A stretch of DNA of 63,276 nt, filler included, from Dimargaris cristalligena (lineage: Eukaryota): assembly GCA_003614675.1 (NCBI GenBank). It is 10 parts of 10 records of this genome, joined end to end, with 100 filler letters (N's around TTAATTAATTAA, not from the genome) between each part and the next. Parts side by side here need not be neighbours in the genome. Positions count along the whole stretch, not along the records: positions 44,514 to 50,711 come from ML003545.1; 9 more parts are not named here. The stretch is one strand, 5' to 3'. Numbering within the stretch: position 1 is the first letter of the stretch; the number at the start of each line of letters is the position of its first letter. Shown one piece after another: positions 2,764 to 63,276 of this stretch. Both the position numbers and the translations under genes were made by a program. The notes beneath the pieces were generated by a model. It ran no database searches, was not told the DNA's origin, and saw nothing but the letters and a program-made list of their open reading frames with translations.

Positions 2764-2985
2764 ATGGAATACACACTACTACAGTGGCTCTGCTCCACCA
2801 CCCCATGCTCAGGCTGACTCAAGTACTGGTACCTGACCTTACAAGAATATGACTTCACTATCTGACACTGCCCTGGCTGCATGCATAGTAATGCCAACAG
2901 ATTGTCTTGGCTAGCTACCCCTCAGGTGGTAGACCTCTAGGATGAACTCCTGGTCAATCACATCTGCCCCAGAACCAGCACCCCT

Positions 2986-3396
2986 ATATTTGCCATTCAA
3001 CATTGCCACCTGAAGGCCACCCTACCCACTCAGGCTACCCCTGGTTCTGCGGGTTATGACCTTGCATGCATCACCAAGTTTCACCTCACACTGCACCAAT
3101 GTGCCAAAGTAGCCATGGGCTGGGCCCTCCAAATAGAGCTGCTGATGGTGGCCCTCAGCCAAGGATGCAGTTCCCTGGGCCTACACCACATTATCATCTG
3201 AGGCAGGGTCATCAACACTGACTTCTGAGGTGAGATCCAAGTCCTCATGCACAACCCCACAACTGAAACACTCTACTTGCAGCCTGGGGATTACATCACC
3301 CAGATTATCTTCCAATAATATGAAGCTCTACTCCTACTGGAAACTACCACTCTAAATAAAATGGAATGTGTTTCCTCTGGCTTTGGGTCCACCAAT
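2986..3396 (+). pseudogene. Retrotransposon-encoded trimeric dUTPase domain (decayed)
   Basis: All five motifs are in order in one frame: GSAGYDL (3043-3063), G(C)SSLG, G.VI(N)TDF(*)GEI, PGD(Y)I(T)Q and SGFGST (to 3393). Confidence 0.92.
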
Positions 3397-4663
3397 ACAT
3401 AGCCCATTGTCCTAGTCACCACCATCCCCACAGCCCAGGTGCTCCAGGACCAACTGGCAGACACTGATGTAAAGAACCTGCATGATTAAATAGAAGATTG
3501 GATGCTTCACAAATTCTGTGGAAAAAACCAGATATTTGTGATTAAAGAGCAACTCCTGTACCAACAGGGCCCCAGTGGATAGAACCACCTAGTACTACCC
3601 AAGTCTCACTGGGCTACTGCCATTGATGCTGCCCACAGCGGGCCTGGAGCCAGTCACCTGGGAGCTGAAATAGTCCTACACTGCCTCTGCCAAACCAGCT
3701 ACTGGCCATCCATGGATAAGGACATTAAGGAATATGTCTGTGGCTGAAAAACCTACCAATGCCACCAATAGGCCCCTCAGCCCCCAGACCAGCTTGTCAC
3801 CCCCCCTCACTAGCCCCTTGGACTACCTTAGGATCAACATCATTGGCCCCTTCAATATAACTAAGAATAGCAACAAGTTTGTCATTATGGCCATCAACTA
3901 CTTCACTCATTGGCCTTTCACGTGCACTGTGCCCTACATCACCACTCAAGCCATTATCCAGTTCCTCATTGAAGATATTATCAGTATACATAGTTACCCC
4001 CATATCCTTATCTCCAACCACAGTAAATAATTCACCACTAGTATCTTCTGGAAAACCCTGTGACTCCTAGGGGTAGACCAAATAAATGGCTATCCCCTAC
4101 TGCTCCCAGAGTAATGGAGCCAGGGAACTTCTCAATGGAACCCTCAAATACATAATCACCAAATATTCCCCTGGCAACAACCCCCAATGGGGTTAACACC
4201 TCACCCTCCACCTGTTTGCCTACTGCATGGCCCACATCTGTGTAATCACCAACAAACCCTTCTTCTTGATGTATGGCTGTGATCCACACATGCCTATCAA
4301 TGTTGCCCTGAACCCCAAACCTGATGCTCTGCAAGCCTCCTCTGGCTCTGCCTACATTAATGAGTTATACAACAGGCTCAGTAAAGCCTTCCAATATGTC
4401 CACCACAAACTGGGTCCCAAGCCTACTGACCCTACACAATACCATATTGGTGATCATGTCTTAGTCTGAGTCCCACATGGACCCCTGTCATTACAGGCCC
4501 TGTTCAAAGGACCTATCTCCATAGAAGGTATCTATGGCAGTAACACCTATACCATCACTCCTGTGGTACATGATAAGTACCACCTACAAGAATAAGTCTC
4601 CAGTGACCCGATTATTCCATTCATCAAAGGCCTTGAGGATAAGGCTCCAGTAGGAGAGGGTAA

Positions 4664-5478
4664 TGTTGGCCCTCCTAATCTGACTTAATCTGGACTTAAC
4701 AATCATCCTTCCTTATTAGGCCTTATATTGCCATATTAACCCTCCCATAGTCACCCCCTGGTACTATGGGGTCATCATTTATTAAATAACCCTTCTCCTT
4801 CCAGCCCCAACACTTTACACTAAAATACTTACCCAGCTGATCCAAGACTCTTCTGGTTCCCATGAGAGTCTTCTAGATATGAAGCTATCCAGTTGGACTA
4901 TTTATCTACCTATACCTTAGTTTTAGTAGCATTTCCCTTGGGACTTCCCTCTGGAGCTGTCCCCGCATATATATAACCAGGCCCTACTGGGACTGGTTTA
5001 ATGCCTTAGCTTATTATTTACCCCCTAGTTTACCTTAATAAAACTCTATATATGTATTGAAGAATATATTCCTACGTGTTCTTTATTCTATCCCATTTTT
5101 ACCCAATTATGCTAGTTTACTCTGCTATCATGAGATCATTCATATTAGCCAATTATATTTCACTCTACAGAAATTACAACTCAATAAAACTAACCACCTA
5201 GAGGTACCTACCGTCCTCTAGCTACTTTCTTCCCTTACTTCCAGTTTTATTTCCTTTAAGTCCTTAGTATTCCAACAATATGCTCACCCCCCTTATACTA
5301 ACTAGTAAGTGTGCTTGCTGCACGTCCCTTGCATTTACCTGCACTTGTCCTTTATTGGTTAGTACTATGCCCCCATCCTAATGCTAGCAGCCCACTTGGC
5401 CGAGCCTAAGCCCCACCTACAGTTAGAAGCCTATCCTTGGGACTCTAGATGGACTAAGAGTGGTAAGCCTAGGTAACA
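4664..5478 (+). repeat. 3' LTR of the Gypsy element (family A, ~585 bp excluding the nested insert)
   Basis: Starts TGTTGGCCC directly after the PPT and ends GGTAACA. Homologous to 55994-56575, 59082-59663 and 60182-60765. Confidence 0.92.
5055..5277. mobile_element. 223-bp solo-LTR-like insert (family B) inside LTR A
   Basis: TSD ATATG (5050-5054, 5278-5282). Its reverse complement aligns end to end with 57887-58108. Absent from the other LTR A copies. Confidence 0.9.
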
Positions 5479-6301
5479 GCCTGCACAATAATTTATTAAT
5501 AATTTTGATACATAATAGGGGAGGACCAGTAAACTGGTCATGGAAATATGGCTAAAAGAGAAACTGATTTTAAAAGGGGAAAAAAAGAGAAAAGAGAACC
5601 CGCATGCAGCAAAGGGAGAGTGCAGGTGTGGGGTAAGAGGTGAGGGTGGGAGAACCCCAATGGAAATAGAGAATAGATAAGGGAAAAGAGGGCGGCCTGC
5701 AAGGCCGACCAGCCCTATATTGTTCTATTGTCATTGGCCAATAAAGGCGGGGTCCCCTCTAGAAAGGGGGGACACCGTCTCATTATTGATCTTGCGTGGG
5801 ATAGTCCCCCATTGGTTTGGCATTAAACTAGCTGGAAAAGTGTGTCTATGAATAGTGTGCTGCCGTGGGCAGCTGGTCAGAGGCCACGTAAGCCCTAGTA
5901 CACATTACTAATCCAAGAAGTAGCCATACTTTGGATGAATTCAAGGTCCCCGGACGATTGACGAGTTATTTCCATGGGAGTGGTCCGGGGTCATTAATGT
6001 TATTTTATTTTTTTATGCTAGCTGATTCTCTTTTCCTTCAGCTTTCCAAATCATACTTCCATTTGCCTTTCATTCCATTATTGACAAAGTTATAGGTCGT
6101 CAAAGTCAATGACAATTTTAAAACTATGACAATTGACCACCTCATATTACCACTTTTATGCTATGGACGATCCTTTATGAACAGGGCTTGGGAATAACCA
6201 GCCTCGGGCGGATTCCTTCTTGGAATCATGCTATACAATTTCTTAGCATGAATTCCTTTATTTTATCAATATCCGACATGAAGAAGGACTGGGAAGACTG
6301 T

Positions 6302-44513: not shown

Positions 44514-47500
44514 TCACCGCTGGGTGTGTTGAGACAGCCACAGCTGGCTCCCTTGGTTGGTGACTTGATAATCGTTGTTGCCTCGGTAGTCGTCGCTTGA
44601 GTACCTGTTATCGATAATCAGGGTGTTCCCGCTGATTGAGCCAGCTGTGGCTTTCTCGGGTAGGCAATTAATAATCCTGGCTGCACCGTTTACTTGGAAC
44701 CCTGCTTAATATCCTAGTCGAATCACATGGAGCCAGCTGTGGCTGTCTCAAGTACCTCATTTAAATTAGTGCTGCAGGTTGAATATGAGTTCAGGTCGCT
44801 TCGCTTACAACGCTCGTGACATGGAGCCGCCTATGGCCGTCTCGGGTTAACGGCTAATAATTAACGTTGAGACAGCCACAGCTGGCTCCCTACTATTTAA
44901 TCCTCGCTGCATCGTGAGACAGCCACAGCTGGCTCCCTTGGTGATGGGGTTGATCACGTTGATGAAGCGTTGCAGGTTTAACTGGTATATCATGGTTGCA
45001 CGGTTGACTATAAGCTCAGGGTGGCTCATCAACATAATTCTTGATGAGACAGCCACAGCTGGCTCCTTGTTGGTAACCATTTAAATCAATGCTGCGTTGT
45101 TGAATGAGCTCGATGTCGCTTCGCTTATTAAGTCCGATCGATGGAGCCGACTCTTGGCCGTCTCAGGTTGATGTTGATCCCGATGTTGAGGATGACGGTG
45201 GTGACGACGATGTTGTTGATAACGTTGAAGATGTTGGTGATCCTTGATGATGTCGCTCCGCTCACCAAGTCTAGCCTAGGGAGCCGACTTGTGGCCGTCT
45301 CAGGTAGATTAACAATTCTGGTTGAAGGTGATGATGAGGATGATGACGTCGCTCCGCTTACCACCACCGATTGATTATTAATTCATGCTGCACCGTTGGA
45401 TGAGCAAGAGGTCGCTTCGCTTAACATCACGATTACAAAGAGCCGACTCTTGGCCGTCTCGGGTTGAACCTAACCATCCTTGCTGCGGTTGATGATGACG
45501 ATGATCATAATGTTGACTGGTGATGACTGACCCATGATACCCGAGTCGCTCCGCTTACCACCACTGATTGATTAACAATTCAGGTTGCACCGTTGAATAT
45601 CGATTACTGTTGATTATGTTGGTGAGGGTGATGATGATCATGTTGCTCCTTGATGATGACATGTCGCTTCGCTCACCACTTGAACCTAGGGAGCCGCCTG
45701 TGGCCGTCTCGGGTCATTTACAATCATGGCTGCAGCGGTCTTAGTTAACCCTCTGCAAGGTCGCTTCGCTTAGTGAACCCGTCGATCCTTAGGTTGATGG
45801 TAGTGATGATGATTCCGCTGGCTAACCCGTTGATCGTGATGTCGCTTCGCTTACTGATTCCCGCTGGTTAGCCGCCTGTGGCCGTCTCAGGTAGGTTATT
45901 ATTAATCATGGTTGCAGGTTGGACCCTTGATGCACGAGGTCGCTTTGATTACTGAATCAATCGAGGGGAGCCGTCTCAAGTGGATGACCTAATGACTATC
46001 CTGCGGAATAAGAGCCGCCTGTGGGCGTCTCAGGTTGAATGATTAATCAGTGCTGCACTGTTGAACATAAACTTACTGGTGTTGAGACAGCCACAGCTGG
46101 CTCCTTTATCGGCGACTTTACTAGTCAATGCTTCACGGTTGTTGATGGCGATGATGCTTATGAATTAGGGTAGTGATTAATTAATCCACGATGCAAGGAG
46201 TCGCTCATTTAAATTCAGATTGCCCCGTTGAATTCAAAGTCGCTTCGCTTATCGATGACAATGAAGGTGACCCATGATGCACATGTTGACGGTGACGACG
46301 GTTCTTATCACGATGGCTATGTTGATGAGGGTCCCGCTGATGACTAATCTATGATGCAAGGTCGCTTCGCTCACTGATCTTGGTTACTAGGAGCCGCCTG
46401 TGGCCGTCTCATGTTGATTATTTAAATTGATGCTGCAGGTTGAATAACAAGGAGTCGCTATGCTCACCACTAGTTGTTGAGACAGCCACAGCTGGCTCCC
46501 TTGGTGATGGGGTTGATCACGTTGATGAAGCGTTGCAGGTTTAACTGGTATATCATGGTTGCACGGTTGACTATAAGCTCAGGGTGGCTCATCAACATAA
46601 TTCTTGTTGAGACAGCCACAGCTGGCTCATCTAGTTGAGTACTTATTCACCGCTGCTCGCTGATGAGGTCGCTACGCTTACTGATTACCTAGACTCCTGC
46701 GCACTCCGTTTGCTGACACCTTCAACATCCTAGCTGCACGGTGATCGATGATGCACAGGTCGCTTCGCTTACCTCCACTCCTTCACTCCTCACCCCCGAA
46801 GTCTCGGGGGATCGATCGCTCGTACGTTAACTCTTACAGATTGGTGCTGCACGGTTTCATGGATCATTCGCTGGGTCTAGGCCTGCACGAGGTCGCTTCG
46901 CTCGTAACATTCGTGAGGGGTAACTGGCTCCGCGTTGTGGGGTGGTTCGTGGGTGACTAACGACCTCCGGGTTTATGGCAACGTTACGGTCAGGCACGCT
47001 CCACCCCTCCGGCCCCCCCTTGAAGTTGCGGATTAGGTTCCTCCGATCGACTACCATCGATCTCCGGACCCTAACCTCAACGGGGGGCCTCCCGGGGTTG
47101 CGCTAACACCTGACCTTCACTTCCTCACCTCTGACTGACGCACCTTCGACTTGGGGTATGGTCCAGAAATGGCCCAAATGAGCTTATTTCAATTGAACAT
47201 CAAATGGGTCATTTATTGGGCCATTTCTGGACCTCCATAGACGATTGAATCCAGAAATGGCCCATTTCGATGATCGACCCCTGGACCCCTCGATTGGACT
47301 AAAGGGACCTGGAAATGACCTTCCCGAAGGGCGTGCGATTCGAGGGGACCCCGATTGATTCTGACTCTGAAATGGCTTAATCGCCGGAATGAATTGAACA
47401 TGAATTGGGACGAATTGCGCGAATGGATCAATGGGTGGCGGGTGACCCCCGGTTTTGGGTCACCGAATTGAATTGAGCGGAGATTGAAATAAGGTCATCT

Positions 47501-50500
47501 GGATCCTGGAGGTCGTTTTCACGATTAGAGAGGGCTCCGTATGATACATTTGACATTAATAGTAGTGGTTGCATGGGAGTTGGTAGGGTCATTCGGTTTC
47601 ATTATCACTAACAATTGTGGCTGCACTATTATTTTCAATCGGACGGATATCAGGTGAGGTGTACCGTTTATAGGTAGATCGTGGAGTGGGTCAGGATGAC
47701 GTGTTGGTAGGGTGACTCATTTACAGATCATGGCTGCATAGTTGATTCATCGAACCTCTTGTTTAAACATTACCGTGGACTTGGTCGAGGATTCGCCCTT
47801 GGTTTACTTAGAATGACCCTTATTCGTTATTCTGACGTCGTTATTTTTATCGGGTGGTCCCCAGTTGGTCATATTATTTATAGATCACCGCTGCAGGTTG
47901 TATGAGTACGATGTCGCTTCGCTTGCTAATCGTTATTAAAGGAGCCACCTTGTGGGTGTCTCAGGTGAATGATTAATCCCTGATGCAGGGCTTATTTGAA
48001 TTGATGCTGCACTGGTCTTGAACTCGAGGTCCTTCTTATCAATCGCCGCTGCAGTTTAAACATGAACGAGGGTGATTCTGTTGATGATGAGGGTGATGAC
48101 TGACTCAGGATTAACAGGTCGCTCCGCTTACTAAATTCGTTAGAGGGCGCCGCCTATGGCCGTCGCCGGCCTTGATAATCCTTGTTGAACTTGAGACAGC
48201 CATAGCTGGCTCACCTTGAACCCTTACTAATCCTGGTTGCAGGAGCCAGCTTGTTGCTGTCTCAGGTTGATTATAGATTATTGTTGATCGGTTGGGTGAC
48301 TCATGTTGCACTAGGTCGCTTAACATTACCGATCGGAAGGAGCCGCCTGTGGGCGTCTCGGGTGGAACTTAATCACGGCTGCACCGTTGGACTTCATGGT
48401 GATGACCCCGCTGGCTACCCTTCGACCCGTCCCACCTAATTTAAAGACCTTGGCTGACCGTCCTCACTTATAAGCCTAGAATGATATGACACCCTTACTC
48501 ATGATGATGTTGAGACAGCCACAGCTGGCTCCTCGTTTAACCCTGGACTTCATATCACGAGGCCCCTTTTAATTCTGGGCTAATCCTTGACTGTGGAGCC
48601 GCCTGTGGCCGTCTCGGGTAGATGATTAATAATTCAGGTTGCACTGATCCATGAACAAGATGTCGCTTCGCTTACCATCAAGGATTACAACTGACTGACT
48701 CCGCGTTTATGCTATCCCTACTTCGCTCCTCACCCTCGGGCCCCTACCCCAAAGATTCGATCGCTATCCGTTTACCTACTCTAGACTAACGCTGCACAGG
48801 TCGCTCCGCTCACCAATGACGGTCGAATGAGCCAGCTGTGGCTGTCTCAGGGTGCTTATTTAAATTGATGCTGCACATGTTGAGGGTGACGTTGCTGATC
48901 ACTGATCCATCATGCACAGGTCGCTTCGCTTACTATCACGAATGGAAGGAGCCGCCCATGGGCGTCTCAGGTTAATTATAAATTGATGCTGCACGGTTGG
49001 GTAACTGATGATGTTGATAATGACCGTGACGATTCTGTAGGATGTCGCTTAACGATGATGGAAGGAGCCACCTCGTGGGTGTCTCAGCTAGTCCATTATA
49101 GATTAAGGCTGTGGTTGAATGGGCACGATGTCGCTGCGCTTACTAATCGAGGTTGCAGGGAGCCAGCTTGTTGCTGTCTCATGTGGATGATTAATGATTC
49201 TTGTTGAGACAGCCACAGCTGGCTATTTTGATGATGATGTTGATGCTGTTTATGACGGTTCCGCTGGCTCCTCTTGCTACTAGTCACTCTTCGCTGCATT
49301 GTTGAGACAGCTAGTTGGCTCCCTGGTAATGTTTATGAGTCCCTACTGAAACTTAGTTAATCACCGCTGCATTGTTGATGGTGATGTCCTTGACGTCTAT
49401 TAACGAGTCCTTGAGCTCAATCGTCACGTTGGTTGAGGACCTGGTGACGTCGGTCGTGGTGATGAGCCAGATGTGACCGGCTTGGGTAGCAGGTCGCTTC
49501 GCTTACTATACTGAATGGATTGAGCCACCTCGTGGGTGTCTCGCAACCTGAACCCTGGTTGAATCCACGATTGAGCCAGCTGTGGCTGAATCCTGAAGTG
49601 ATTACCATGAAGGAGCCACCTTGTGGGTGTCTCGCAACTTGTTTACAGTCCGATGTTGAACTGGTGGATAACCCTGTTTATGAACGAGCTGCTAGGGTTG
49701 ATAGTCATGGTGGTCTACAGGTCCCTGCTGATCTTGATGACCTTTGGGTAGATCATAGCGTCCTTCCAGTCAATCGTAATGTCGTTGGGGTCGTTGGTGG
49801 TGTCCTTACTGACTGCACGATACGGCCATAGGCGGCTCCCTTGGCTAATACTATTAACCTCATCATTTAGTCCTTGAATGACCCTCACGACTGCCCCTCT
49901 TATAGACTACGGTTGCACGGTTGACTGAACTTGGAGTCGCTTCGCTTACTAACTGATAATGTAGGAGCCACCTCGTGGGTGGCTCATGTTAATTAATAAT
50001 CGAGACAGCCACAGCTGGCTCCTATTGGTTCAATCATGTAATCTTATCACGGTTATCCTGCTGCTTAATACTACACCGAATCATGTTGACCTCTTAGTCC
50101 TGACTGAACCATTTATTATTGAGCCGCCTATGGCCGTCTAAGCTAACACTTACAGATTAATGCTGCTTGAGACAGCCACAGCTGGCTCTCCCCCTAACCA
50201 TCTTCGTTGGACTTGTTGATGATGTTGATCATTGATCCATGGTGCACGTTGAGCCACCTCGTGGGTGTCTCAGGTGGATTATAAACTAGTGTTGCACGGT
50301 AGAATGTACTCAATGTCGCTTCGCTTGGTAACACCGTTGGAAGGAGCCGCCTGTGGCCGTCTCGGGTTGTAATAGAAATTAATGTTGCACCGTTGAACAT
50401 GAACCCAGTATCGCCCCCTTGTTACTCATTCATCATCCTAACTTGAGACAGCCACAGCTGGCTCCTTTCACTGAACATCATGAATCCTTGCTGCACCGTT

Positions 50501-50711
50501 TCCTACTAGTGATGAACTGCGTTGAGCCAGTTGTGGCTGTCAGGTTGAATCGTTTACTAACACTATCTTATTGAGACAGCCACAGCTGGCTCTATGTGGT
50601 TATCAGGATATCCTTGTAGGTGATAGTGGTGTCCTCATGGTAGACCTTCATGTTCTTCGTAGTCAACGCTGCAGTTGAGACAGCCACAGCTGGCTCCCTT
50701 GTTGAATGTGA
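44514..50711. repeat. Non-coding three-box repeat lattice (box A hairpin GAGC-stem-loop-stem-TCTC; box B GTCGCTNCGCTYA; box C GNTGCA) with variable spacers
   Basis: By manual count about 45 box A and more than 20 box B copies. Box order and spacing are conserved. No credible ORF. Confidence 0.9.
46959..47517. other. Unique multi-hairpin core inside the lattice (putative origin or structured RNA)
   Basis: Closing inverted repeat AACGACCTCC/GGAGGTCGTT, a perfect 18-bp inverted repeat 47160-47177/47216-47233, and several more stems. Confidence 0.65.
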
Positions 50712-50811: not shown

Positions 50812-51087
50812 AACAATAGAAGGGATAAAAAGAAAGGGAGAAAGCTATTATTAGCTATTCTTTGAATAGGGGCACAGTCAGGCCAGGGGTAGTGTGAATG
50901 CAGGGGTGCAGTCTGGTCAGGGGCAGGGGTGCATCACAGTCAAGGGTATAAAATATAATAATAGGAAAAACAATATAATAATAAAAATGGAGGAAAAATG
51001 ACTATACTCATCAGGGGCATACTTCTGATAAGTACAAAAAATGGATAAAAAATAAAAGTAAGTAAAAAATGTAGTAAGTTCACCACA
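50812..51087 (-). mobile_element. Partial LTR (family C), truncated by contig start
   Basis: Homologous to 1-209 and ends TTCACCACA. Confidence 0.75.
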
Positions 51088-51967
51088 GACGTCAAGGATT
51101 CAAAGTCGGGGATCTAGTTCTGTTAAAAGACACTCGACTCACCAAAGTCAAGGGTAAACTTTGAGCCTGATGGTGTGGACCCTACATGATAGCCACCATA
51201 GTACATGAAGATGTGTACACCCTCAATGAATTGGATAGTGCAGCATTCAAAGATCCTACTACCAGCATCCACCTACATCATTATTTTAGAGCAGTTTGAA
51301 CCGGGACATTCAAATTCAGCCCCAGGAGATGTACTGCCAAGGGCCAGGGTAATTTCCCTTTCCATGAGACTAACTGGTCACCACACTCCATTCATGATGC
51401 TTGCATACTCTAAATCTGTAGGTTTGCCTTTGTGACAAACAGTGTTCACACTGAGATGAGTGAGTGACATTGATATCTTCCATTTTCCCATATTCTTTTC
51501 TTCCATATTCCACCTTCAAGAATGCCCTGGTGGATCTGAAGCAATTTTGTCTTCTGTTTTCTATATTATTTTTCTTCTGTATCTGACTTTTAAGGAATGC
51601 CTCAGCAGATCTGAGGCAATTTTGTCTTCCATCTTTCCATATATCTTTTCTTTCCCTTTTTACACAGTGTTCAAATTTGAAGAAACAGCTAGTTTTTTCC
51701 CTTCATGGTTTTATGGTTATCAGTCCATCTGAGGATGATGTCCTAAAAGTAGTGGTGTAGCTCTAAGTTCATAGTATCAATTTGCATATATATAGTATCC
51801 CCAGCCAGCCTTTAAAATGGCAAGTTATCTTTGAGATAAGTTTTTATTATTTGGAATAAATATCTATTTTTTAACTTCACCCAGCATCTTACCCAGCATC
51901 AGCCAAGGACTTCAACCGGAAGTTGATTTTTTGTTTTTCTTAATTTTATTATCTTATTTTTAGTACA
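51088..51967 (+). mobile_element. 3' end of a second Ty3/Gypsy element: integrase GPY/F tail plus 3' LTR (family E, 51330-51967)
   Basis: FKVGDLVLL...KL(*)A(*)WCGPY.I, then an LTR with inverted termini TGTACT...AGTACA. Confidence 0.8.
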
Positions 51968-54900
51968 TAGCAACTGTGGCTCCTCCAGCACCTAACTCTG
52001 ATGATGGGAGTGTAGGACCATTCTGCGTGGAATATTTTGCACCATACCCCAGTTCAACCTCTGAGTACAGCTCCGATCCAATCTGCCTAGCTGAAGGGCC
52101 ATGTCCCGAGTTCTCCATGATTTGTCCAGGTGCATAGAGCCCTCCAAACCCAACATCCAGTGACCCTGCCAATCCCGGGGAGGATAAGGGGTCCAACCCC
52201 AGCCTTAGTCCCAGAAGGGAGGGGCCTCAAACCACTGGCCCAACACCTTGCATCAAATTACTTATGTGTTATCTCTTATAAACTTGTCCAAGGTGTAGTC
52301 ATTTAATCATATTAGGGATTATTGCCTATGACAAGGTAATGGAGGGGATTAAGAGCTGTCCTATTCAGATATATATATATATATAATATACAAAGGCGAT
52401 AATTTTTTATTGCTAGTTATTTGAGGATATGGTGGGGTGGATACCCATATGGTTTTGTTTTGGGCCAATAACTTTGGGATGCAGTTCACTGAACCTGTTA
52501 TTAGTATTGTTGATATCTTTTGTCATTGCCACTCTTATATCCATTTTCCTTATAAGGAAACTGACTTCTTAGTAGACAAGGTTAAGAGTGAACATTTTGA
52601 TACTAAAATTGTGCCCAGATTTTGGTATTGGGGGCTATTACGACGAAATTAGCTGTAGAGATACTTTGAAAATTATATGATAATGTTTATTGCAATGATT
52701 TATACTGTGTCGTCAAAAATTATAACCAAGAGCTTGTTAGTATTCAGTATATACGGGTGTGAGAAACTAAGTAATAGTAATTTATTAGTTGCATTGATGA
52801 ACTGGACATAAAATATATAATCAGTGATTGTATTATATTAGGAGGCGAGTAGGACTATTGTCATCTGAGGGTAACTATTAGGGTAGACTGGTGGTTTGTG
52901 TCTATACTGAAGAAACTAATGATCCTAATAGTACTTCTAAGCATATTAGCCAAGGATGGTAGGTAGTTAGTCCATAGGACTAGTATTCCAAGAGGGGGCC
53001 ATAGTCACAGTGTCCTTGAGGGACCAAGTTGGACTTCCTGATAATGTGCCAAGTGTTGCTGCGGTATGGTTTTTCTCAGTTGGCACCCTTGTAGTATCAT
53101 CTGAGGGTTCGACATTCATGGGTAGATAGGGTACCTGTGGCATTCTGGTTGAGTCCCCAGTTTCATAGGATGCCTGGTTAGCATTGGGCGCCCCTGGTGG
53201 TGCAGTATCAACAAGCTCTAGGCTAATGGTTGATCAACCAGTGGGGAATAGATGTGTTATAAAGTATACCGGGATATGAGATGGAGGGGAAAAAGTTCAA
53301 CAGGCAGTGTATATCTCAGGGTAGTTACTGTCACTATAGCTGGGCTAAAAGTAAAGATGGGTGGGTGGGGGTTGGCTCTGATGGCTTGGTCATGATACAT
53401 TGACAATGTCACAGGCAGAGGGATGGAGGTGGTACAAAGGGAGTCCTGGTGACGTGGTTGGACCATTTATTTGTGCAGCCCAAAAATTTTCTTAAGCTAG
53501 ATTAATATCATAATAGGAATAAGTGAACAAACATAGAAACACATTGTTAGAAATTGGCCTACATATCATTCAGTAAGTACAAAATGATTTATCAGAATAT
53601 CATTTGGAAGCCATTCGTTAATTAATCAGCATAATGAAAATTGGGTGTTATCTTTCATTGAATGGAGACATCACTGTTACATTAGTGCACTCATTGGCAA
53701 GGCAGATAGTAAAATAGGGAACATTGTCTTTTATTATATCACTTCTGATAGTTATATACAGCCGACATAGTATAAATACAATTACTGGCCCGCCTAAACT
53801 TCACAATATAAATAAAAATATGTAATATAATAAAACTTACCATATTGAAAGCCCACTTAACGGGTTTTACGATTGGCACTCTGGGGTCGGCGGTAGGATA
53901 ATCCCTACCAGGCCGATTCTTCTTGAATATAATGTTTATGGAAAATGCCATTTGGTTATAAAGCGTAGCAATTTTGTGTTTTGCTGATAGCTTTAGGATG
54001 AGAAAAAACCACAGTTTTTATACCTGGTGAAAACACACCACCCAGTCGAGGGAAGTGTTAGCTTAAGCCTAACAACACAATGAAAACCAATGGAAATCCC
54101 CAACTACAGGAAAACAGCAGACATCCCAATGCTATGCACAAACTATGGCCATTGTCACCGACCTGGGTCATATGGAAGGCAAACATTATGCTCCCAAATG
54201 GCCATTATTGTCCACAGTTCTGCTTCCGATGCCAAATCCTCCTTACCAGCAAAGGGAATACAGCAGTAAGATTATTAGATGTGGTTTATTTCACACACTG
54301 AATAACAATAGTACTATCTATTCATGATTAGGCCTGACAATGGCCACACCTTTCTAACTAAGCCCAATTATGAAGGTTACAGGCCTAGTGCCTTTACAAG
54401 TGCCGATTCCTCATAATTAGCTATTCCCAGGAGATGGTAGGTCTTCACCGAAGATGGTGAACTCCACCCATATGTAGATGTACCCACCTTCCTGAACAGC
54501 TCCACAGCAATCAAGAGTACTATTGGTATTATCCTAATAACTTCGATTAGTAGAAAAAAAAGTGCACTATAATATCCCATCTCCCCCTTCCATACAATAT
54601 TTTTTTCCTTTATGGATATTCCCTTGTTGGCGCATTCCCCTTCCTCCCATCCATTATAGTAAAATAACCGTGTATAAAAATATTGTTATTGTTCCTTCGA
54701 GGTATAGTCCCAGATAGCCCTATTCGGCGCAAGTTAATGTCATTACCGGAGTTTGGGCTGTTTCGGGATGTCAAAAGCTGCCTTCTACCATTAAAGATTC
54801 ATGTTTCTATGCAATACGAGTACTACTGTATATTACCATTCACCCATTTATATGTGGATATGTCATACGAGAGGAAATCAGCCTGACTTGACGGCTCTTG

Positions 54901-55993
54901 GCCCTCTGCTTTCAATATCCCCAAATTTATGCATTGGATTCCCTTGGCACGGGACATTGTGTAACGCCATGTTAAACATAATAGTAGATATATCCAAAGA
55001 ATAAACTGGGCGACATACCGCAATCTCGGGAATCTCATCGCTTATGTGCATGCCATAGTTGAATATTTAATTAATTATTTGAATATGTAGCTGGTCCACT
55101 GATGCAGTTAATTTGACCATGTCATGAAGTCCTTTCTGTTTGGGGGGTAACTAAGATTCACTGTGACCAGATTATATGTTTCCTAATGGTGATATTCTTC
55201 CCTGTATAAGCCTTCATCAGCCGAGGACTATTTGTTGTATTATTAAGCCAATTGGTACATATTTGTATTGTTACTTAGGTTTTTACTTCAAAGACTGCCC
55301 AATTTTGTCTCCGTCAGTACATTCTGTTACTCCAATAAGCCTACACATGTAATACTGGGACCAGAATGACAGGGGGAATCCATGTCACCTTGTCAGGTGA
55401 GGAGAAAGAAGACTCTGATAGTGATATTAGCCCAAAAGGCTGTTGGATTCTGGAAATTGGAGGCCGATGAGAAGATGTTTCCAGTGATAATGTATTTGCC
55501 GGAGAGATGGTCCAATAATGGGATTAACTAAACAGTGTTTTTGGCAGGTAATATTTGTTATTATAAAAGAGAAATTCGAATGAACCTTGTAAAGTTAAGT
55601 CAATAGTTGCGGACTCGAGAAACTGCTTCTGCTGGTGAACCAGCAGAAGTGAAGTTGATGATAATTGGCCTCTTGAGACCACGATAGGCTTTATTTCACC
55701 AGATTTAATGTGTGATGTAAATGGTTTTTTGTAAAAGACGAATCCTTACCTTGGCAGGTTATATGTACTGCTGCTCTAGTCCGGGACATACCCTCCCTTT
55801 TCTTCCTTGGACTTTTTATGAGCAATAAGCACTAAGTTTACTAATACCTAAATTTGTAATTGAATTCAATAAGCAATTAACTAAATCAACCATCCTATAC
55901 TTATTGAAGTAGATTAATACTAAATACTAATATTTCTGGGTGGGCTTACAAATTATATTAAATGGGATATTATCATCAACTTCACTTACACTG

Positions 55994-56575
55994 TGTTGGA
56001 TCTTCTAATCTAACCTAATCCAGCTGGCTTAGTACTCGACAACCCTAGGCCTTATAGTGCCATATTAACCCTCCCATAGTCACCCCCAGTACTATGGGTC
56101 ATTATTTATATATATAACCCTACCCCTTGTGACCCCAACACCTTGCACCCCAAACAATCCACTTGCTGATCCAAGACCCTTCCAGTTCCCATGGGAGTCT
56201 TCCTAGTATGAAGCCATCCAGTTGGTCCCTTTACCTATTTGTACCTTAGCCTTAGTAGTATTTACCTTGGAACCTCCCTCTGGAGTTGTCCCCATATATA
56301 TAACTAGGCCCTACTGGGACTGGTTCAATTCCTTAGCTTATTACTATCCCTTAGTTTACCTCAATAAACTCTATATAAACTCACCCCCCCCTTATACTGA
56401 CCAGTAAGTGTACACTGCTACATGTCCCTTGCATAGTTACCACACTTGCCCCTATTGGGTTAGTACCACCCCATACCTGATACTAGTAGCCACTTAGCCG
56501 AGCCTAAGCCCACCTACTATTAGAAGCCTACCCCCAGGACTCTTAACAGACTAAGAGTAGATAATTTAGGTGACA
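55994..56575 (+). mobile_element. LTR family A copy, no TSD
   Basis: TGTTGG...GGTGACA, colinear with 4664-5478. Flanks CACTG/AATAT do not match. Confidence 0.88.
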
Positions 56576-56942
56576 AATATGATGGTCAATGCAGGTACCT
56601 TCAAATGCAATTGTAAAGATTTAAAGAAGAGAGAAAGAACCACAAGGGGCAAAGCTAGATGCCCACAGTTGGTTTAATTGTATTGGAAATAGCAGTAATG
56701 ATGATAAAAATGTTGTTCTGAGTATAGGATGATACAATCATAGATAGAGAATAGTCCCAGGTATTAGGATGGACCAATCAGAGTAAAGGATTTGGAGGGG
56801 CGGGAGAAATGAATTTCCAACACTTTTCACTAGCCCATTATAATAAGTATTTTTTAATTTCATTTACTATAGTAGCCTTAGTGTGTTGCCAACAATTTGA
56901 GGGCCTCTGCTGGTTTGCCTTTGGGAGAGTCGGTAGGAGGGG

Positions 56943-57001
56943 TGTGGTGAACTTACCACATTTTTTACCTACTTTTATTTTTATCTATTTTTCGCACTTA
57001 T
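56943..57001 (+). mobile_element. Start of an LTR family C copy after a polypurine tract
   Basis: GGTAGGAGGGG then TGTGGTGAACTTACC..., the reverse-complement homolog of 150-209. Confidence 0.7.
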
Positions 57002-57886
57002 NNNNNNNNNNNNNNNNNNNNNNNNNNNNNNNNNNNNNNNNNNNNTTAATTAATTAANNNNNNNNNNNNNNNNNNNNNNNNNNNNNNNNNNNNNNNNNNN
57101 NCAAGTATCAATTTCACTTCTGATACTTGTGAGATCACTCTCCCTAATGGGATGTCCTTTTATGCAGGGGCATATACACATACATATATCATAAAAATGA
57201 GGTATCCTGGACAAAATTTCACCCCCAAAGCCCTAATTTCAAAGGAAAATTCAATTCAACAGGCCCATATCAACTTAGGCTATGTTAATTATCCCTTCCT
57301 GATTCAGGTAGCCAAGTCTAGCCTACTGCCAGGTGTTGATTTAACCACTTCCAAGGGTATCTAACCCTGTGAAACTTGTTTAATTAACAAGGCAACTCAC
57401 CTACCCTTCTCTGGCAGGCTGGACCCTATGTTCTCTATACCGGAGGTAATTCACACTGATGTAGCTGGCCCCATGCCAGTCAGAATAATGAAAGAACAAT
57501 ACTACTTTGTCTCTTTTATTGACCAGTTTTCAAGAATGGCTTATATCAGTTTGATTAAATATAAACCTGATGTACCCCAGGCACTGGACTAGTATTTAAA
57601 GTATATGAATAATCAGTTTAGTAAATTTCCCAAAGAAATTTATTCTGATAATAGTGGTAAGTACATCCCCCATCAATTTGCTACTATCCTCAGGGAATAT
57701 GGAATTACTCATTCCACTACTGCACCTTACTCCCCTCAACAAAATGGTATTACTGAAAGGTTCAATCGAACTGTTCACTCCACTGTAAAATGTATGCTTA
57801 ATGAAAAGGGTATACCCAAATCCCTTTGGGGGGAAGCCCTTCTGGCCACTACCATAATTTAGAATAGGATTCCAAGTCCTAAAATT

Positions 57887-58108
57887 TGTTGGAATACTAA
57901 GGATGTAAAGAAAATAAAACTGGAAGTAAGGGAAGAAAGTAGCTAGAGGACAGTAGGTGCCTCTAGGTGGTTAGTTTTATTAAACTGTAATTTCAATGGG
58001 GTGAAATATAAGTGGCTAACATAAATGATCTCATGATAGCTGAATAAACTAACATAATTGGGTGAAACAGGATAAGATAAAGAACACATAGGAATATATT
58101 CTTCAATA
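57887..58108. mobile_element. 222-bp solo-LTR-like insert (family B) in the Copia integrase
   Basis: TSD AAATT (57882-57886, 58109-58113). Termini TGTTGGAA...CTTCAATA. Confidence 0.9.
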
Positions 58109-59081
58109 AAATTAGTGATGACACTCCCCATTTATGCTGGTATGGCTAACTACTAGATCTTACATGACTTCACCAGTTTAGGTCCAAGGCAATTATCAAA
58201 ACCAACAATCATCACTCCCAAAAGTTACAACCAACTTCAAAGAAGCTCCTCTACATGGGGCTAACTGCCAACCTGAAAAACTATAAGTTTTTTGACCCCC
58301 AGTCAAACAAGGTCATTGTCAGTCATGATGCATATTTTTTGTCTAATTCCCTGGCTTCCTGGACTCCAGAACAGCCATCCCCATCAAAAACCATCCAGAA
58401 TCAAGCCCAGAATACCTCCAGTTGCTAATTTTACCTCCCTGATGAGGATTCAGGCTTAAATTTGCCTATTCATGCATCCCATGCATCTCATGCACCTCCT
58501 GTAGTAGTGATTGTACCTACGACAATGGATATTTCTAACTAATCCAACTATAGTTCTGAAATTTATCCAGTAGTATCCACTGCACCCCAGGTCATTAATA
58601 TAAGTAATCTTAGTATGGAATTAAGCCCACATACTTTAAGTGGTATCCCTGTAGACCTAAATCTTGATCCAAATGACTGGGAACTTGAATCTGAACTAAG
58701 GAATCCAATATCACCCATCAGGTCCCTGTACCTATCCAATTTAACTACAGAACACCTGTCCCTGGCCCCCAGGTTATTCCCTTAAAAAAGAATCATTCCA
58801 AAAGGTCAAAACAACTACAATTGGTGACTCCGTGACTGTCCAAATGTATCTGTGGCATTCCTCCCTCTCCCTCTCCCAACCCCAATACTCCTTCCAATTT
58901 AGCTTTTCTGGCCATGGATGGTCCACAGTCATACTCCCTGGCCATGAAGGATCAGTTCCATAAGGAATGTCAGTCAGCCATTGACCTTGAACTCAAGTCT
59001 ATGGCTGAAAATAAAGTCTGGGACTTAGTACCTCATCTAAAAAAACTCCAAAGTTTTACCCTATTACTGGGTTTTTATTAT

Positions 59082-59663
59082 TGTTGGCCCTCCTAATCTA
59101 ACTTAATCCAGACCTAAAGAGTGCCCACCCTTATTAGGCCTTATAGTACCATATTAACCCTCCCATAGTTACCCCTGGTACTATGGGGCCATCATTTATT
59201 ATATAACCCCACTCATTCTAACCCCAATGCTTTGCACCCCAAACACTCAACTTACCAATCCAAGACTCTTCCAGTTCCCATGAGAGTCTTCCTGATGCAA
59301 AGCCATCCGGTTGGGCCCTTTACCTATTTGCACCTTAGTCTTAGTCATATTCCCCTTGGGACCTCCCTCTGGAACCATCCCTGCATATATAACTGGGCCC
59401 AATGGGGCCTGGTTCAACTCTTTAGCTTATTCATATCCCCCAGTTTACCTCAATAAACTCCATATATACTCATCCCCTTGTACTAACTAGTAAATGTGCC
59501 TACTGCATGTCCCTGACATTTACCTGCATCTGTCCTCTATTAGTTAGTACTATGTCCCCATCCTAACAATAGTAGCCTGCTTGGCAGAACCTAAGCCCCA
59601 CCTACCATTAGAAGCCTATCCTTGGGACTCTTGATGGACTAAGAGTAGTTAATCTGGGTGACA
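59082..59663 (+). mobile_element. Solo LTR family A in the Copia RT
   Basis: TGTTGG...GTGACA with TSD ATTAT/ATTAC (one transition). Splits the WVF.TK motif. Confidence 0.92.
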
Positions 59664-60181
59664 ATTACCAAGTGGCACCCTGATGGTACTATTGAGCATT
59701 ACAAGGCCCAACTAGTTATCAAGGGATTCCATCAGCATGAAGGAATTGACTATAATGAAGTATTTGCACCTGTAGTTCACTACTCTAGCATCAGGATTCT
59801 CTTAGCACTTACTACCAAGTACTAACTTTTTATTTATCAAATAGATGTACAAACTGTGTTTTTGAATAGCAAAATTGATAAAGAAGTTTTTATTGAACCT
59901 CCTGAGGGATCCCAGATCCCCAAACACTCTGTCTGCAAGCTTAACCATAGTCTGTATAGACTCAAGCAATCTCTAAGACTCTGGAATTAAACACTTGATG
60001 AGTTTTTGCTGTCTTGTGACATTTTAAAGTGTGAACTTGATCATAGTATTTATGCCAGGATTCAAGGAAACCTATGTACATACCTAGCTATATATGTTAA
60101 TGACATTCTTATTGTCTCATCTGAGCTTTCTGGCATGGATTAGGTTAAATAACAACTCAATGCCAGATTCCCAATGACTGA

Positions 60182-60765
60182 TATTGGCCCTTCTAATCTA
60201 CCTTAATCTGGACACTATGCTATCCACCCTTATTAGGCCTTATAGTACCATAATAACCTTCCCATAGTCACCCCTGGTACTATGAGATCACCCTATAGTA
60301 TATAACCCTTCCCCTTCTGGACTCTGCCTCTTTATACTAATCACCCAAGTGCTAATCTGGGGACTCTTCCAGTTACCATCAGAGTCTTCCAGATACTAGC
60401 AGCCATCTGGTCAGCTTAATTACCTATACCTTAGTCTTAGTAGTATTTTATCCTTGGGACCCCCCTCTGGAGTTGTCCCTGTATATATATAACCATGCCC
60501 CATTGGGACCAGTTAGATTCCTTAGCTTATCCTTACCCCCTAGTTTACCCCTAATAAACCTTATATATACTCACTCCCCTCATACTAACTAGTAAGTGTG
60601 CCCACTGCATATCCCTTACCTTTACCTGTACTTAGCCTTTATCAGTTAGTATCATGTCCTGTACCTGATGCCAGTAGCCCACGTGGCCAAGCCTAAGCCC
60701 TGCCTACTATTAAAAGCCTATCCGCAGGACCCTTGTGAGACTTAGAGTGGTTAACCCAGGCAACA
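60182..60765 (+). mobile_element. LTR family A copy terminating the Copia RT remnant
   Basis: TATTGGCCC...GGCAACA, colinear with the other A copies. Copia sequence does not visibly resume afterwards. Confidence 0.88.
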
Positions 60766-61163
60766 GTTGAAAAATATGACTTCCAATGAATAGGTCACTA
60801 TTAGTTTTCCTCTGTAGGATGCAAATATCTTTTGTGTGCCCTCAGACATAGTATGAATACTAATTATATTGTAATAATATAAAAAACCCAATGTAATATA
60901 AATCTGATAAATGTTTTCAATGACAATATGCTAACAACTTAATAACTGTAATGTTATTAAATGTGGCAATGATATAATAAAATTTGACATCATAAATGTT
61001 GACAGGACAAAAGCAAACTAAATATTGAATAAAAAATGGATTGAGTAGGACGTGATATTAATAAATGATAGTCAATAATAGGATGCTGGATGGTCCTTAA
61101 TATGTCATAATCGTCAAACTGCTGTATTGTACGAAGTGAAAGTAAGCCCTGATCTATTGAAAG

Positions 61164-61451
61164 TTATTTTTTTTTGCCAAAAATATGTGGAACCTTTGTA
61201 CCTAAAGTAGATAGTTTATTACCCACTTTTTTTACAACATTGGAGGCAGCACCCTTAAACCTTTGACTTTTGGATTTGGGGAGTTGGGGTTTGTTGGGAG
61301 CGGGGGGATGTTCTAGGGCCCATAAATTAGGGTATTTTTCACGACGTTGGGCATCATAGGCAGCATTTTCCTCCTTGGTTATTTGGCCTTCCGATTGGAT
61401 AATGATGGCTATGACAACAAGCGAAACGGCAAACATGGATGAAAGCTTCAT
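61164..61451 (-). CDS. Small secreted protein (95 aa) with Lys-rich amphipathic C-terminus
   Basis: ATG at 61451 gives signal peptide MKLSSMFAVSLVVIAIIIQSEG. TATATAAA at ~61645-61652. Confidence 0.8.
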   Translation of the reverse strand: MKLSSMFAVSLVVIAIIIQSEGQITKEENAAYDAQRREKYPNLWALEHPPAPNKPQLPKSKSQRFKGAASNVVKKVGNKLSTLGTKVPHIFGKKK

Positions 61452-63276
61452 TTTCAAGGGGCAGTGAAGGAGTGAGAAAAGTTTGGAAAAATAGGAGAAG
61501 TTGGTCACAGTAGGGTTGGTTGACTAATATGCTAAGTAATAAAGCTGATGGAAATAAAAGTAGGGGGTTTCGATGATTAAATATGGAATCAATGAAATGA
61601 AGGTTGGTGAAATGATGATGTGAAGTAGGGTGGTCACCGCACGCTTTATATATGTAATATGGTGACCATCATCTCGTTCCAGCTACAGCGATGGACTCAA
61701 CAAAACCATTTTCCCATTTACGTGGGCCAGTTTACCCCTGTCCGCTGGGTAAATGATGAGCAATCCCGCTACTTCTGTGTGCGTTGCCGCTGTTCCACCA
61801 GAACAAAGAATATCTAGGGGATCGGTTCAGTTCTGCGGAGATACGAAAACCCGATTTAAAAGAAGGGCTTTATTGGTTGAAAATCAATTTCTGGTTGATT
61901 ATCATATTTGCATATCACCTGAATGCAAATGCGGCTGTTTTGGGTTTCGTCTCATGCCCGAGTGTAAGTTGGAGAGTCGCCCTATCCAATTCGTTGAAAA
62001 GAGATTCAACTTTCTCGCATTCAACGCGAGCACCATGTTTTTAAGGATTTACTTCCTTGTTCTTAGAAGAGTTAAAGGCAAGTGGGGCATTAAGTCGAAA
62101 AAATAGGAAGGCAGTAGATCTCGTATCGTCTTCCATTAATAATACGAAGAAGGGGATACAACCTGAATATCGGGAGGATAACACCCCATTTGTTCCGCTT
62201 GGCCATTGCCAGTAGTTCTTGAGGATAGACGAATGTCCAACATCTAGGCAATCCTCCCCTCCCTCCATCTTGTATTGCCGCTGGGTTCCGGTTTTACGGC
62301 ACTAAGTTTAGACATACACGTGAAAGCGGCGGGCTCCTTTTCAGGGTGCCGTGGTTCATGTGGTAGTGTTAAAAACGGGATTGAACGAGTGTAGAAGTAT
62401 TTAGGAAGCTAGCTTTATTATTATTAGCGGCCCCAATAGGGTGTGAAGATTAATGTAGCGATTGTAGGAAATGAAAGTAAACGTATGGGAGTAATAGTCA
62501 TCTGCGGATCCGTCTCTGGGTTGGCCAACTGTTCCTTTCTATGCTGGTATAACTCAAGAACCATGTATGCGCATATAGCCTTGGATGGTGCTCCCGGGTG
62601 GTTCGTACTATTCCTATGGTCTGGACGGACAGTCAGTATCCTTGCATAGCCTTCAGGATGAGTCGGGGGTAGTGGAGGAGAAGATACCATCGGAGGTCCA
62701 GCTGGATGCCTGACTATATGCACTGTCTGCTTGTCGCTGGGTACACCTGGCGCTGCAATATTAACAGTAGCATCCCCCGGCTGACCGTGACATTACTGTT
62801 AGCCGGGTTGAAGGAAACACGGTTTGTGGGGGTGAACATAGGCAGCAGTGCTTCGTTCATTGCTGCCAGCTATTTTACAAGTTCATAGTCCTATCGCAAT
62901 AATCATCTGTTTATTCATATGTTTATATATGTAGGAAAACGCGCGACATCATTGCACTGTGAAGTGAATCATTCGGTCCTTTCTGTCGTGGCATTTGCGA
63001 CGAGAGTTCACCGAAAAATAAGCTACAACCCAAATACTTTTATATTCCAATTTACATGACACACATCCAATTAACGGTATAAAACCCCCATAATACAAGG
63101 CTTTTTAAATAAATTGATATTTCCTTAGTCGACGCTGATTGTATCCGAAGGTCGGGAATATTCTTCAATATCCACCATTCCTCAGTTTCATTTGACATAA
63201 TAAATGAAATACGTGCCAATTGTTGAATTCATTGCACAACCCACCACCTAGGCTGAAAGCTGAGCAGTACACCTTG

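Follow-up and report, generated by a model that had tools for sequence, protein, structure and literature searches.

A mismatched palindromic box with co-changing arms in a non-coding modular array of Dimargaris cristalligena

Organization of the array

The window analysed here was a stretch of 63,276 bases from Dimargaris cristalligena, a mycoparasitic fungus of the Kickxellomycotina; it comprised ten unlinked contigs of 6.2-6.3 kb each, and adjacency across the linkers between them is meaningless. One unplaced contig carried a non-coding array of short conserved boxes, termed A, A' (inverted A), B and C, arranged on either side of a box-poor centre (Table 1). The array ran into both ends of this contig (44514-50711), leaving its flanking neighbours unseen. 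Box A, the element of chief concern, was an imperfect palindrome of 20-21 nucleotides (nt) with the form GAG-C-NNNN-loop-NNNN-T-CTC.

The strict pattern GAGCCNNCN{3,7}GNNGTCTC matched 34 times (20 on the plus strand, 14 on the minus strand), against 0.02 matches expected from shuffled sequence; all of these lay within 44531-50696, and none occurred in the other nine contigs (~57 kb). A looser scan returned 46 matches, three of which (47347, 47444 and 48646) were removed by eye as chance resemblances, leaving 43 copies, 27 on the plus strand and 16 on the minus. An identical 20-mer was shared by 15 of the 43; when this commonest form was searched for with up to three mismatches, 24 of 24 matches fell in the array contig. 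The 16 minus-strand copies were true inversions of box A, having a complemented loop and a mismatch that becomes A.G.

Boxes B and C were found on the plus strand only, and each had a single chance match in the ~57 kb outside the array contig. In 15 of 25 cases box B was followed by a plus-strand box A after a gap of 14-16 nt of variable sequence. The canonical unit of ~93 nt (88-99 nt where recognizable) ran from A through an AT-rich spacer of ~20 nt to C, with B placed 12 nt further on and the next A 15 nt beyond B; A' copies often abutted box C and distances from one box A to the next ranged from 37 to 316 nt. Self-matches between units showed 75-86% identity over 50-130 nt; just one segmental duplicate within the contig was recent, and it was 99.3% identical to its copy. 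An inverted partner was present 16-29 nt downstream of 6 of the 27 plus-strand copies of box A, forming A/A' doublets.

Table 1. Features of the array contig, with positions along the whole window. Strict: matched by GAGCCNNCN{3,7}GNNGTCTC; loose: from the looser scan; A': inverted A. Inner stems are written 5' arm/3' arm.
Feature	Position	Strand	Description
Array contig, unplaced	44514..50711	+	6,198 bp; non-coding modular array of boxes A, A', B, C with box-poor centre
Linkers between contigs			100 nt; N44-TTAATTAATTAA-N44
Box A'	44531..44550	-	CAGC/GCTG; strict
Box A	44638..44657	+	CAGC/GCTT, one stem mismatch; loose
Box A	44730..44749	+	CAGC/GCTG; strict
Box A	44824..44843	+	CGCC/GCCG, C.C mismatch; strict
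Box A'	44869..44888	-	CAGC/GCTG; strict
Box A'	44916..44935	-	CAGC/GCTG; strict
Box A'	45046..45065	-	CAGC/GCTG; strict
Box A	45144..45164	+	CGAC/GCCG, A.C mismatch, 5-nt loop; strict
Box A	45281..45301	+	CGAC/GCCG, 5-nt loop; strict
Box A	45440..45460	+	CGAC/GCCG, 5-nt loop; strict
Box A	45691..45710	+	CGCC/GCCG; strict
Box A	45869..45888	+	CGCC/GCCG, first base T; loose
Box A	46012..46031	+	CGCC/GGCG, perfect; strict
Box A'	46084..46103	-	CAGC/GCTG; strict
Box A	46391..46410	+	CGCC/GCCG; strict
Box A'	46479..46498	-	CAGC/GCTG; strict
Box A'	46609..46628	-	CAGC/GCTG; strict
Box A	47942..47962	+	CACC/GGTG, 5-nt loop; strict
Box A	48147..48166	+	CGCC/GCCG, outer A-T to C-G (GCG/CGC)
Box A'	48193..48212	-	CAGC/GCTG, loop TATG; strict
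Box A	48243..48263	+	CAGC/GCTG, loop TTGTT; strict
Box A	48340..48359	+	CGCC/GGCG; strict
Box A'	48512..48531	-	CAGC/GCTG; strict
Box A	48596..48615	+	CGCC/GCCG; strict
Box A	48829..48848	+	CAGC/GCTG; strict
Box A	48949..48968	+	CGCC/GGCG, loop CATG; strict
Box A	49065..49085	+	CACC/GGTG; strict
Box A	49160..49180	+	CAGC/GCTG, loop TTGTT; strict
Box A'	49206..49225	-	CAGC/GCTG, first base T; loose
Box A	49522..49542	+	CACC/GGTG; strict
Box A	49573..49592	+	CAGC/GCTG, 3' outer arm decayed (GAATC); loose
Box A	49613..49633	+	CACC/GGTG; strict
Box A, inverted	49819..49838	-	CGCC/GCCG, 3' arm GTATC; sole inverted copy not CAGC/GCTG; loose
Box A	49965..49985	+	CACC/GGTG, C/T mismatch closed (C-G); loose
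Box A'	50002..50021	-	CAGC/GCTG; strict
Box A	50121..50140	+	CGCC/GCCG, last base A; loose
Box A'	50169..50188	-	CAGC/GCTG; strict
Box A	50251..50271	+	CACC/GGTG; strict
Box A	50344..50363	+	CGCC/GCCG; strict
Box A'	50445..50464	-	CAGC/GCTG; strict
Box A	50524..50543	+	decayed, CAGT/GCTG, 3' arm GTCAG; loose
Box A'	50573..50592	-	CAGC/GCTG; strict
Box A'	50677..50696	-	CAGC/GCTG; strict
Box B	44795..50328	+	GTCGCTTCGCTTAC, up to 3 mismatches; 25 copies, all on +
Box B starts (1)	44795, 45115, 45252, 45348, 45411, 45545, 45663, 45760, 45841, 45939, 46239, 46361, 46454	+	
Box B starts (2)	46668, 46759, 46892, 47913, 48118, 48662, 48800, 48920, 49130, 49493, 49936, 50315	+	
Box C	44680..50501	+	GCTGCACGGTTG, up to 2 mismatches; 18 copies, all on +
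Box C starts	44680, 44995, 45387, 45584, 46052, 46130, 46558, 46733, 46846, 47733, 48378, 48988, 49293, 49366, 49912, 50291, 50384, 50490	+	
Segmental duplicate	44915..45065	+	151 nt; copy at 46478-46628
A - 25 nt - A' doublet	49160..49225	+	one long hairpin, -17.1 kcal/mol, z -4.9
Similar folding doublets	44824-44888, 46012-46103, 49965-50021, 50121-50188		
Box-poor centre	46906..47732		own inverted repeats

Sequence types and folding of box A

Alignment of the 43 copies resolved five types of inner stem. CAGC/GCTG was found in 22 copies, two of them near-variants, and accounted for 15 of the 16 inverted copies, 13 of which were the identical 20-mer. CACC/GGTG (six copies) and CGCC/GGCG (three copies) were perfectly paired, while CGCC/GCCG (nine copies), the commonest type on the plus strand, retained a C.C mismatch and CGAC/GCCG (three copies) an A.C mismatch. 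The loop was 4 nt long in 30 copies and 5 nt long in 13, and its column 14 was T throughout. The C at position 4 was invariant; its partner was T in 41 copies, A at 49573, and G at 49965 alone, where the mismatch is closed. The copy at 48147-48166 reads GCGCCGCCTATGGCCGTCGC, and so the outer A-T pair was replaced by C-G on both arms (GCG/CGC for GAG/CTC). A first-pass annotation of this DNA had drawn attention to the inner stems at 44730, 49065, 46012 and 48949, to the variable loops, to the almost constant C-T mismatch and its closure at 49965, to variants with one inner mismatch, and to the two-sided switch at 48147; all of these observations were reproduced in the 43 copies.

That annotation interpreted box A as a selected hairpin or palindromic site. 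Folded as DNA, the perfect inner-stem types were weak (-4.0 to -6.5 kcal/mol, z = -1.0 to -3.0), which speaks against a strict hairpin, the stablest box A being 49965 with its closed mismatch (-9.6 kcal/mol). The CGCC/GCCG and CGAC/GCCG types did not form the box hairpin (z = +0.48 and +0.10, respectively), and copy 48147 folded in a different register. As RNA, the perfect types gave -7.8 to -10 kcal/mol and the mismatched types z values of +0.30 and +0.42. Hence, a dyad with co-changing arms was upheld (see below), but a strict hairpin was not, given that 12 of 43 copies did not take up the box hairpin. The fixed C/T mismatch and the invariant loop T point to sequence-specific recognition or copying, rather than to structure alone.

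Six doublets were folded with DNA parameters, being five of the six pairs with gaps of 16-29 nt, plus 46012/46084 with a gap of 52 nt. Five of these paired A with A' into hairpins of 65-100 nt (-12.6 to -18.8 kcal/mol, z = -2.7 to -5.5); the doublet at 48147-48212 produced no long A/A' hairpin. The two arms of a doublet belonged to different inner-stem types.

These foldbacks would suit a function at the RNA level, whereby the array is transcribed and box A hairpins, or A-spacer-A' foldbacks, act as modules of a non-coding RNA (i.e., repeated protein-binding hairpins) or as small-RNA precursors. The array is also polar, with B (25 of 25) and C (18 of 18) on one strand, and the energies of the perfect boxes as RNA are in keeping with such a role. 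Nevertheless, an RNA-level function is considered improbable. The z values of single boxes were modest (-1.2 to -2.3), wobble of the G.T type occurred in just one of 43 copies, and the inverted copies, which were the best conserved, would form a different RNA hairpin with an A.G mismatch and a CACA loop. No unit-wide conserved RNA fold was found (consensus energy -4.3 kcal/mol), nor were there any Rfam matches at gathering score or tRNAs in the array contig, where three sub-threshold Rfam matches scored 24-25 bits. Protein-coding potential was similarly absent: no open reading frame (ORF) longer than 113 amino acids (aa) was found in this contig, and none of its 36 ORFs of 50 aa or more had a Pfam match at E <= 0.05. 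Coding on the minus strand, either as a repetitive protein or as micro-exons, was rejected for lack of a consistent frame or a Pfam match.

Covariation between the arms

Covariation was assessed with 38 distinct rows drawn from the 43 copies and compared with 500 column shuffles. Paired cells amounted to 92.5%, against 85.1 +/- 1.2 in shuffles, and cells changed on both sides numbered 25, against 10.1 +/- 2.4; neither value was reached in any of the 500 shuffles. The signal came from three pairs. Pair 8-18 of the alignment was A-T in 23 distinct rows and G-C in 15, and was never unpaired, whether among the rows or among all 43 copies. Pair 9-17 was G-C in 17 rows, C-G in nine and mismatched in 12, while pair 4-22 contributed a single C-G, private to copy 48147. 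Since the strict pattern leaves the covarying positions free, pairs 8-18 and 9-17 are not products of ascertainment.

Shared descent was controlled for with neutral coalescent trees of 43 copies bearing 20-30 substitutions, the alignment itself requiring at least 20. These trees yielded at least three doubly changed pairs with a probability of 0.007-0.04, and at least 25 double-changed cells with a probability of 0.002-0.009. The reservation entered in the first-pass annotation, that covariation might lose significance once descent from a few founder variants was accounted for, was thus not borne out: with three events, P on neutral trees was about 0.002-0.04. In sum, covariation in box A exceeded chance and descent at roughly the 1% level, on three mutational events. 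For the private switch at 48147 to have arisen alone, the chance is put, as a rough estimate, at a few per cent; the 3' flank of this copy had diverged too.

Conservation of boxes relative to spacers

Among 11 independent A' copies, the pairwise identity of the box was 0.98, while that of the flanks was 0.28 (-30 to -11) and 0.29 (+11 to +30), compared with 0.25 for random sequence. Likewise, pairwise identity across aligned units was 0.62-0.79 for boxes and 0.40-0.55 for spacers. Among the 27 plus-strand copies, flanks were no more similar within a box type (0.339) than between types (0.342; permutation p = 0.55). Box type was therefore unlinked to flank similarity, which does not fit a few founders spread by duplication of whole units; either the box types are old and each has been conserved in its own right, or they are copied without regard to their flanks. 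The spacers between B and A were fixed in length and random in sequence, which suggests a constraint on geometry.

Dyad boxes that stay identical while their surroundings decay suggest that something reads or copies them. Near-identical boxes within near-random spacers, combined with co-changing arms, favour a maintained dyad site, and the reading tentatively preferred here is that box A is a site of this kind, maintained in a sequence-specific manner within a non-coding modular array, with arm pairing favoured and not obligatory. The boxes would be kept by purifying selection along with copy-correction between array units, presumably because something reads them. The reader would most likely be a protein for which two half-sites of the GAG(C/A)C type and the inner arms together make up a dyad, recognized in duplex DNA or in a hairpin or cruciform that has been extruded. 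Boxes A, C and B, and the inverted, nearly invariant A', would then represent four conserved modules of a degenerate unit of ~93 bp, in an array of at least 6.2 kb.

Several observations weigh against a maintained dyad site. The covariation signal consists of three events only, and the count of doubly changed pairs (three, against 2.1 in shuffles) was reached by 55 of 500 shuffles and was not significant. An inner mismatch and the lack of a box hairpin in 12 of 43 copies indicate that over a quarter of them can do without pairing. The change in loop length from 4 to 5 nt shifts the spacing of the half-sites, which many dimeric duplex binders would not tolerate. Tandem Repeats Finder (TRF) identified no array of ~93 bp, the tandem unit being visible through boxes and self-matches only. 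Lastly, 13 of the 16 inverted copies agree at all 20 bases, more strictly than binding sites usually do, and this fits copying and pasting by conversion or insertion at least as well as it fits selection.

The last point is also expected if the array evolved neutrally as a complex repeat, without selection on pairing, a few founder variants of the box having spread through gene conversion over short tracts or through template switching between repeated boxes, and if symmetric changes arose in single mutational events when one arm was copied off the other by template switching within the hairpin. Template switching between the arms of inverted repeats is reported to create and maintain hairpins and to homogenize their arms (PMC8794818, PMC8604942). 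Neutral spread would explain why there are just five inner-stem types and three double events, why mismatched types are abundant (12 of 43), and why identical 20-mers sit within unrelated flanks. Moreover, differences between types are clustered, a stem pair and a loop indel changing together (CAGC-TGTG-GCTG versus CACC-TTGTG-GGTG), which has the look of a multinucleotide event. Yet switching that homogenizes arms should erase the C/T mismatch, and a mismatch at this position persists in all but one of the 43 copies and in all five types. Boxes B and C are not palindromic and are equally conserved, so a mutational process specific to hairpins cannot explain the conservation of all boxes, while B-A spacers of constant length and random sequence suggest geometric constraint. 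Neutral origin is on balance thought unlikely, although it is the alternative to be taken most seriously.

To our knowledge, almost nothing is known of such non-coding arrays in fungi outside the Dikarya, be they centromeric, regulatory, RNA-producing or recombinational. If the covariation were upheld in a complete census of box A copies, the box would be an element of 20 nt under pairing or dyad constraint of a sort rarely met in nuclear DNA, in which mismatched intermediate alleles are visible, and would lend itself well to telling selection apart from template-switch mutation. If the covariation fails, the array would be an ordinary complex repeat.

Comparison with known systems

Bacterial REP sequences are about 35 nt long, and BIMEs are mosaics in which palindromes in both orientations are combined with other short conserved motifs. 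The array resembles REP/REPIN/BIME systems with RAYT (HUH) transposases in having short imperfect palindromes of discrete types, with many near-identical copies in unrelated flanks, and resembles BIMEs in its mosaic of palindromes in both orientations and other short conserved motifs. Unlike REP sequences, the copies were confined to one fungal contig within the 63 kb examined, rather than dispersed between genes, and box A is shorter (20-21 nt). REPINs are described as inverted doublets that form a long hairpin (PMC3116915); five of six A/A' doublets folded as long hairpins, but a partner within 30 nt was present in just 6 of 27 plus-strand copies, and the arms of the doublets were of different types.

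The first-pass annotation had pointed out that HUH/REP-type and integron recombinases recognize one strand of single-stranded DNA through imperfect hairpins with a fixed mismatch, and had left it as an inference whether this applies to box A. On this proposal, box A would be a mismatched hairpin of single-stranded DNA recognized by an HUH enzyme (REP/RAYT, IS200/IS605 or Helitron) or by an integron-type tyrosine recombinase that copies or recombines the boxes; the doublets would then be REPIN-like, and the array would be BIME-like. Consistent with the proposal are the imperfect palindrome and its unchanging mismatch, the identical boxes amid unrelated flanks, and the inverted doublets folding as long hairpins. 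However, all 43 copies lie in one array, with none in the other ~57 kb, and so are not dispersed. Pfam searches found no recombinase or HUH domain among the ORFs of the window, no recombinase ORF was found in the contig, and there were no cassette ORFs. A Helitron terminus has a hairpin with CTRR within about 10-12 nt after it; the motif CTRR occurred 5-16 nt downstream of 4 of 43 copies, against a background of 17%, and there was no Helitron end signature. Inspection of A' copies by eye revealed no target-site duplications on either side. We know of no HUH transposons in eukaryotes other than Helitrons. Use of box A by an HUH or integron-type recombinase is accordingly held to be very doubtful. 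A eukaryotic counterpart of REPINs and BIMEs, that is, a fungal nuclear array built and kept uniform by an enzyme that recognizes the mismatched single-stranded hairpin (A, or the A/A' doublet) and that copies 20-nt boxes, or recombines them, whatever their flanks, would by analogy be conceivable and is given very little credence.

Integron attC sites are depicted as imperfect palindromes with covarying arms and fixed unpaired features, occurring in arrays with variable intervening sequence (PMC3053210, PMC5027507). Box A shares the covarying arms, the fixed unpaired features and the arrayed arrangement with variable intervals. However, attC sites exceed box A in length and have extrahelical bases and a central part that varies, whereas the unpaired feature of box A is an internal C/T mismatch; and attC sites bound ORF cassettes beside intI and attI, whereas intervals between box A copies were 10-190 nt without ORFs, in a contig without intI. 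Satellites with dyad symmetries below 10 bp are associated with non-B-form DNA at centromeres (PMC5889037). The array is like these in being non-coding, in that every unit contains dyads of less than 10 bp, and in that boxes are conserved while the monomers have diverged, but its units are far more diverged and irregular in length, with four distinct boxes at strict spacing. Hairpins produced or maintained by template switching show clustered symmetric changes in short inverted repeats without intermediates (PMC8794818); clustered symmetric changes are common to box A, but its fixed mismatch and the conserved, non-palindromic B and C are left unexplained.

Searches for relatives elsewhere gave little. 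The box motif strings were not found in the literature, and neither were satellites combining dyad symmetry with compensatory hairpin changes; the linker string led only to papers on bacterial pseudomolecules. The A' 23-mer had no matches in metagenome contigs; the B+A pattern had 119 single matches, none containing box A, and these were dismissed as chance. No relatives were detected among viral contigs and no match among plasmids, while four single matches in prokaryote genomes were close to chance expectation. An array of kinetoplast minicircles or guide RNAs was also rejected: the universal minicircle block had no matches in the contig with up to two mismatches, and neighbouring contigs carry LTR-retrotransposon (long terminal repeat) remnants. 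Box A thus belongs to a modular repeat with a covarying palindromic box that is without earlier description, there being no matching family in Rfam, in the sequence collections or in the literature search with motif strings.

Recovery of the array in sequencing runs

Six sequencing runs from three coded studies contained the array contig; no RNA run was listed among them, which speaks neither for nor against expression. Word depth along the contig was uniform within a run (3,646-5,288 in X1, 603-1,000 in X3, 2.7-8.7 in X5 and 2.6-5.9 in X6). X1 and X3 yielded thousands of related contigs with more than 1,100 box joints, many of them common to both at similar depth; some joints had other letters between the boxes, and further units therefore exist beyond the contig. 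X5 and X6, which belong to two further studies and are labelled as other organisms, contained 0.78 and 0.47 of the contig words, respectively, and their contigs matched long pieces exactly or nearly so, including a piece of 1,534 nt (47211-48744) that spanned copy 48147 with no differences. Because X5 and X6 reproduce long pieces, the array sequence is real.

An artefactual mosaic, created by library amplification or assembly chimerism, would account for the very high word depth in X1 and X3 and for their abundance of related contigs and box joints. Against this, the long pieces recovered from X5 and X6 without differences included A, A' and the 48147 copy, many joints recurred in X1 and X3 at similar depth, and B and C stay on a single strand, so that A' is not an inversion junction. 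An artefact is extremely improbable and already largely refuted. Depth was rejected as a measure of copy number, as library types were unrecorded and depths differed ~1000-fold between studies. Word depth of the contig was ~1000-fold higher in X1 and X3, which belong to one coded study, than in the runs of two other studies, and the share of the contig relative to other box-bearing sequences differed about five-fold between X1 and X3; these differences may reflect amplified or extrachromosomal copies, or else library preparation.

Other features of the array contig

The box-poor centre included a perfect 18-nt inverted repeat at 47160-47177/47216-47233 (GGTCCAGAAATGGCCCAA/TTGGGCCATTTCTGGACC) with a 38-nt loop, the core of which had a third copy at 47250-47264. 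On the minus strand, the C-12 nt-B modules (44680-50501) had the outline of a very short spliceosomal intron, in which box B opens with GTAAGC and, at a distance of 37 nt, box C closes with TGCAG; this may be coincidence, and no reading frame backs the exons. On the plus strand, box B and the bases that follow often read CTTACTAAC/T. Several stretches between boxes (45165-45660, 48060-48110, 49000-49045 and 49226-49260) were rich in G, T and A and poor in C, with a three-base rhythm of GAT/GTT/GGT, and TRF identified a (TGA)12 array at 45490-45526. AT skew was -0.14 to -0.17 between 46 and 50 kb.

Neighbouring contigs

No telomere repeats were found in the 63-kb window. An unbroken ORF of 471 aa (P0001, 19989-21404, minus strand) had an N-terminus resembling a signal peptide and no Pfam match; no homologue was found at E <= 0.001 among 7,999 scored candidates. 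A second ORF of 402 aa (P0002, 14015-15223, minus strand), also without a Pfam match, was rich in Q, N and P and contained internal repeats, including two near-identical YQPNTNGGNQQLQPQ stretches. In a contig neighbouring the array, a 377-aa ORF was 99% identical to 'hypothetical protein H4R33_000392 [Dimargaris cristalligena]' and 41-46% identical to proteins of other Dimargaritales, which marks the assembly as that of a Dimargaris; the array contig is ascribed to this fungus solely through its membership of the assembly.

Three contigs (1-6301, 50812-57001 and 57102-63276) contained decayed pieces of LTR-retrotransposons (zf-CCHC, RVT_1) with an excess of TpG/CpA. Observed/expected CpG was 0.11-0.34 in these three and 0.69-0.93 in the remaining contigs; the value for the array contig was 0.81, which resembles gene-bearing contigs. 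The array is thus not handled as transposons are, in keeping with a maintained dyad site. To judge from base composition, the combination of low CpG and excess TpG/CpA is a putative signature of transposon-directed cytosine methylation in an early-diverging fungus.

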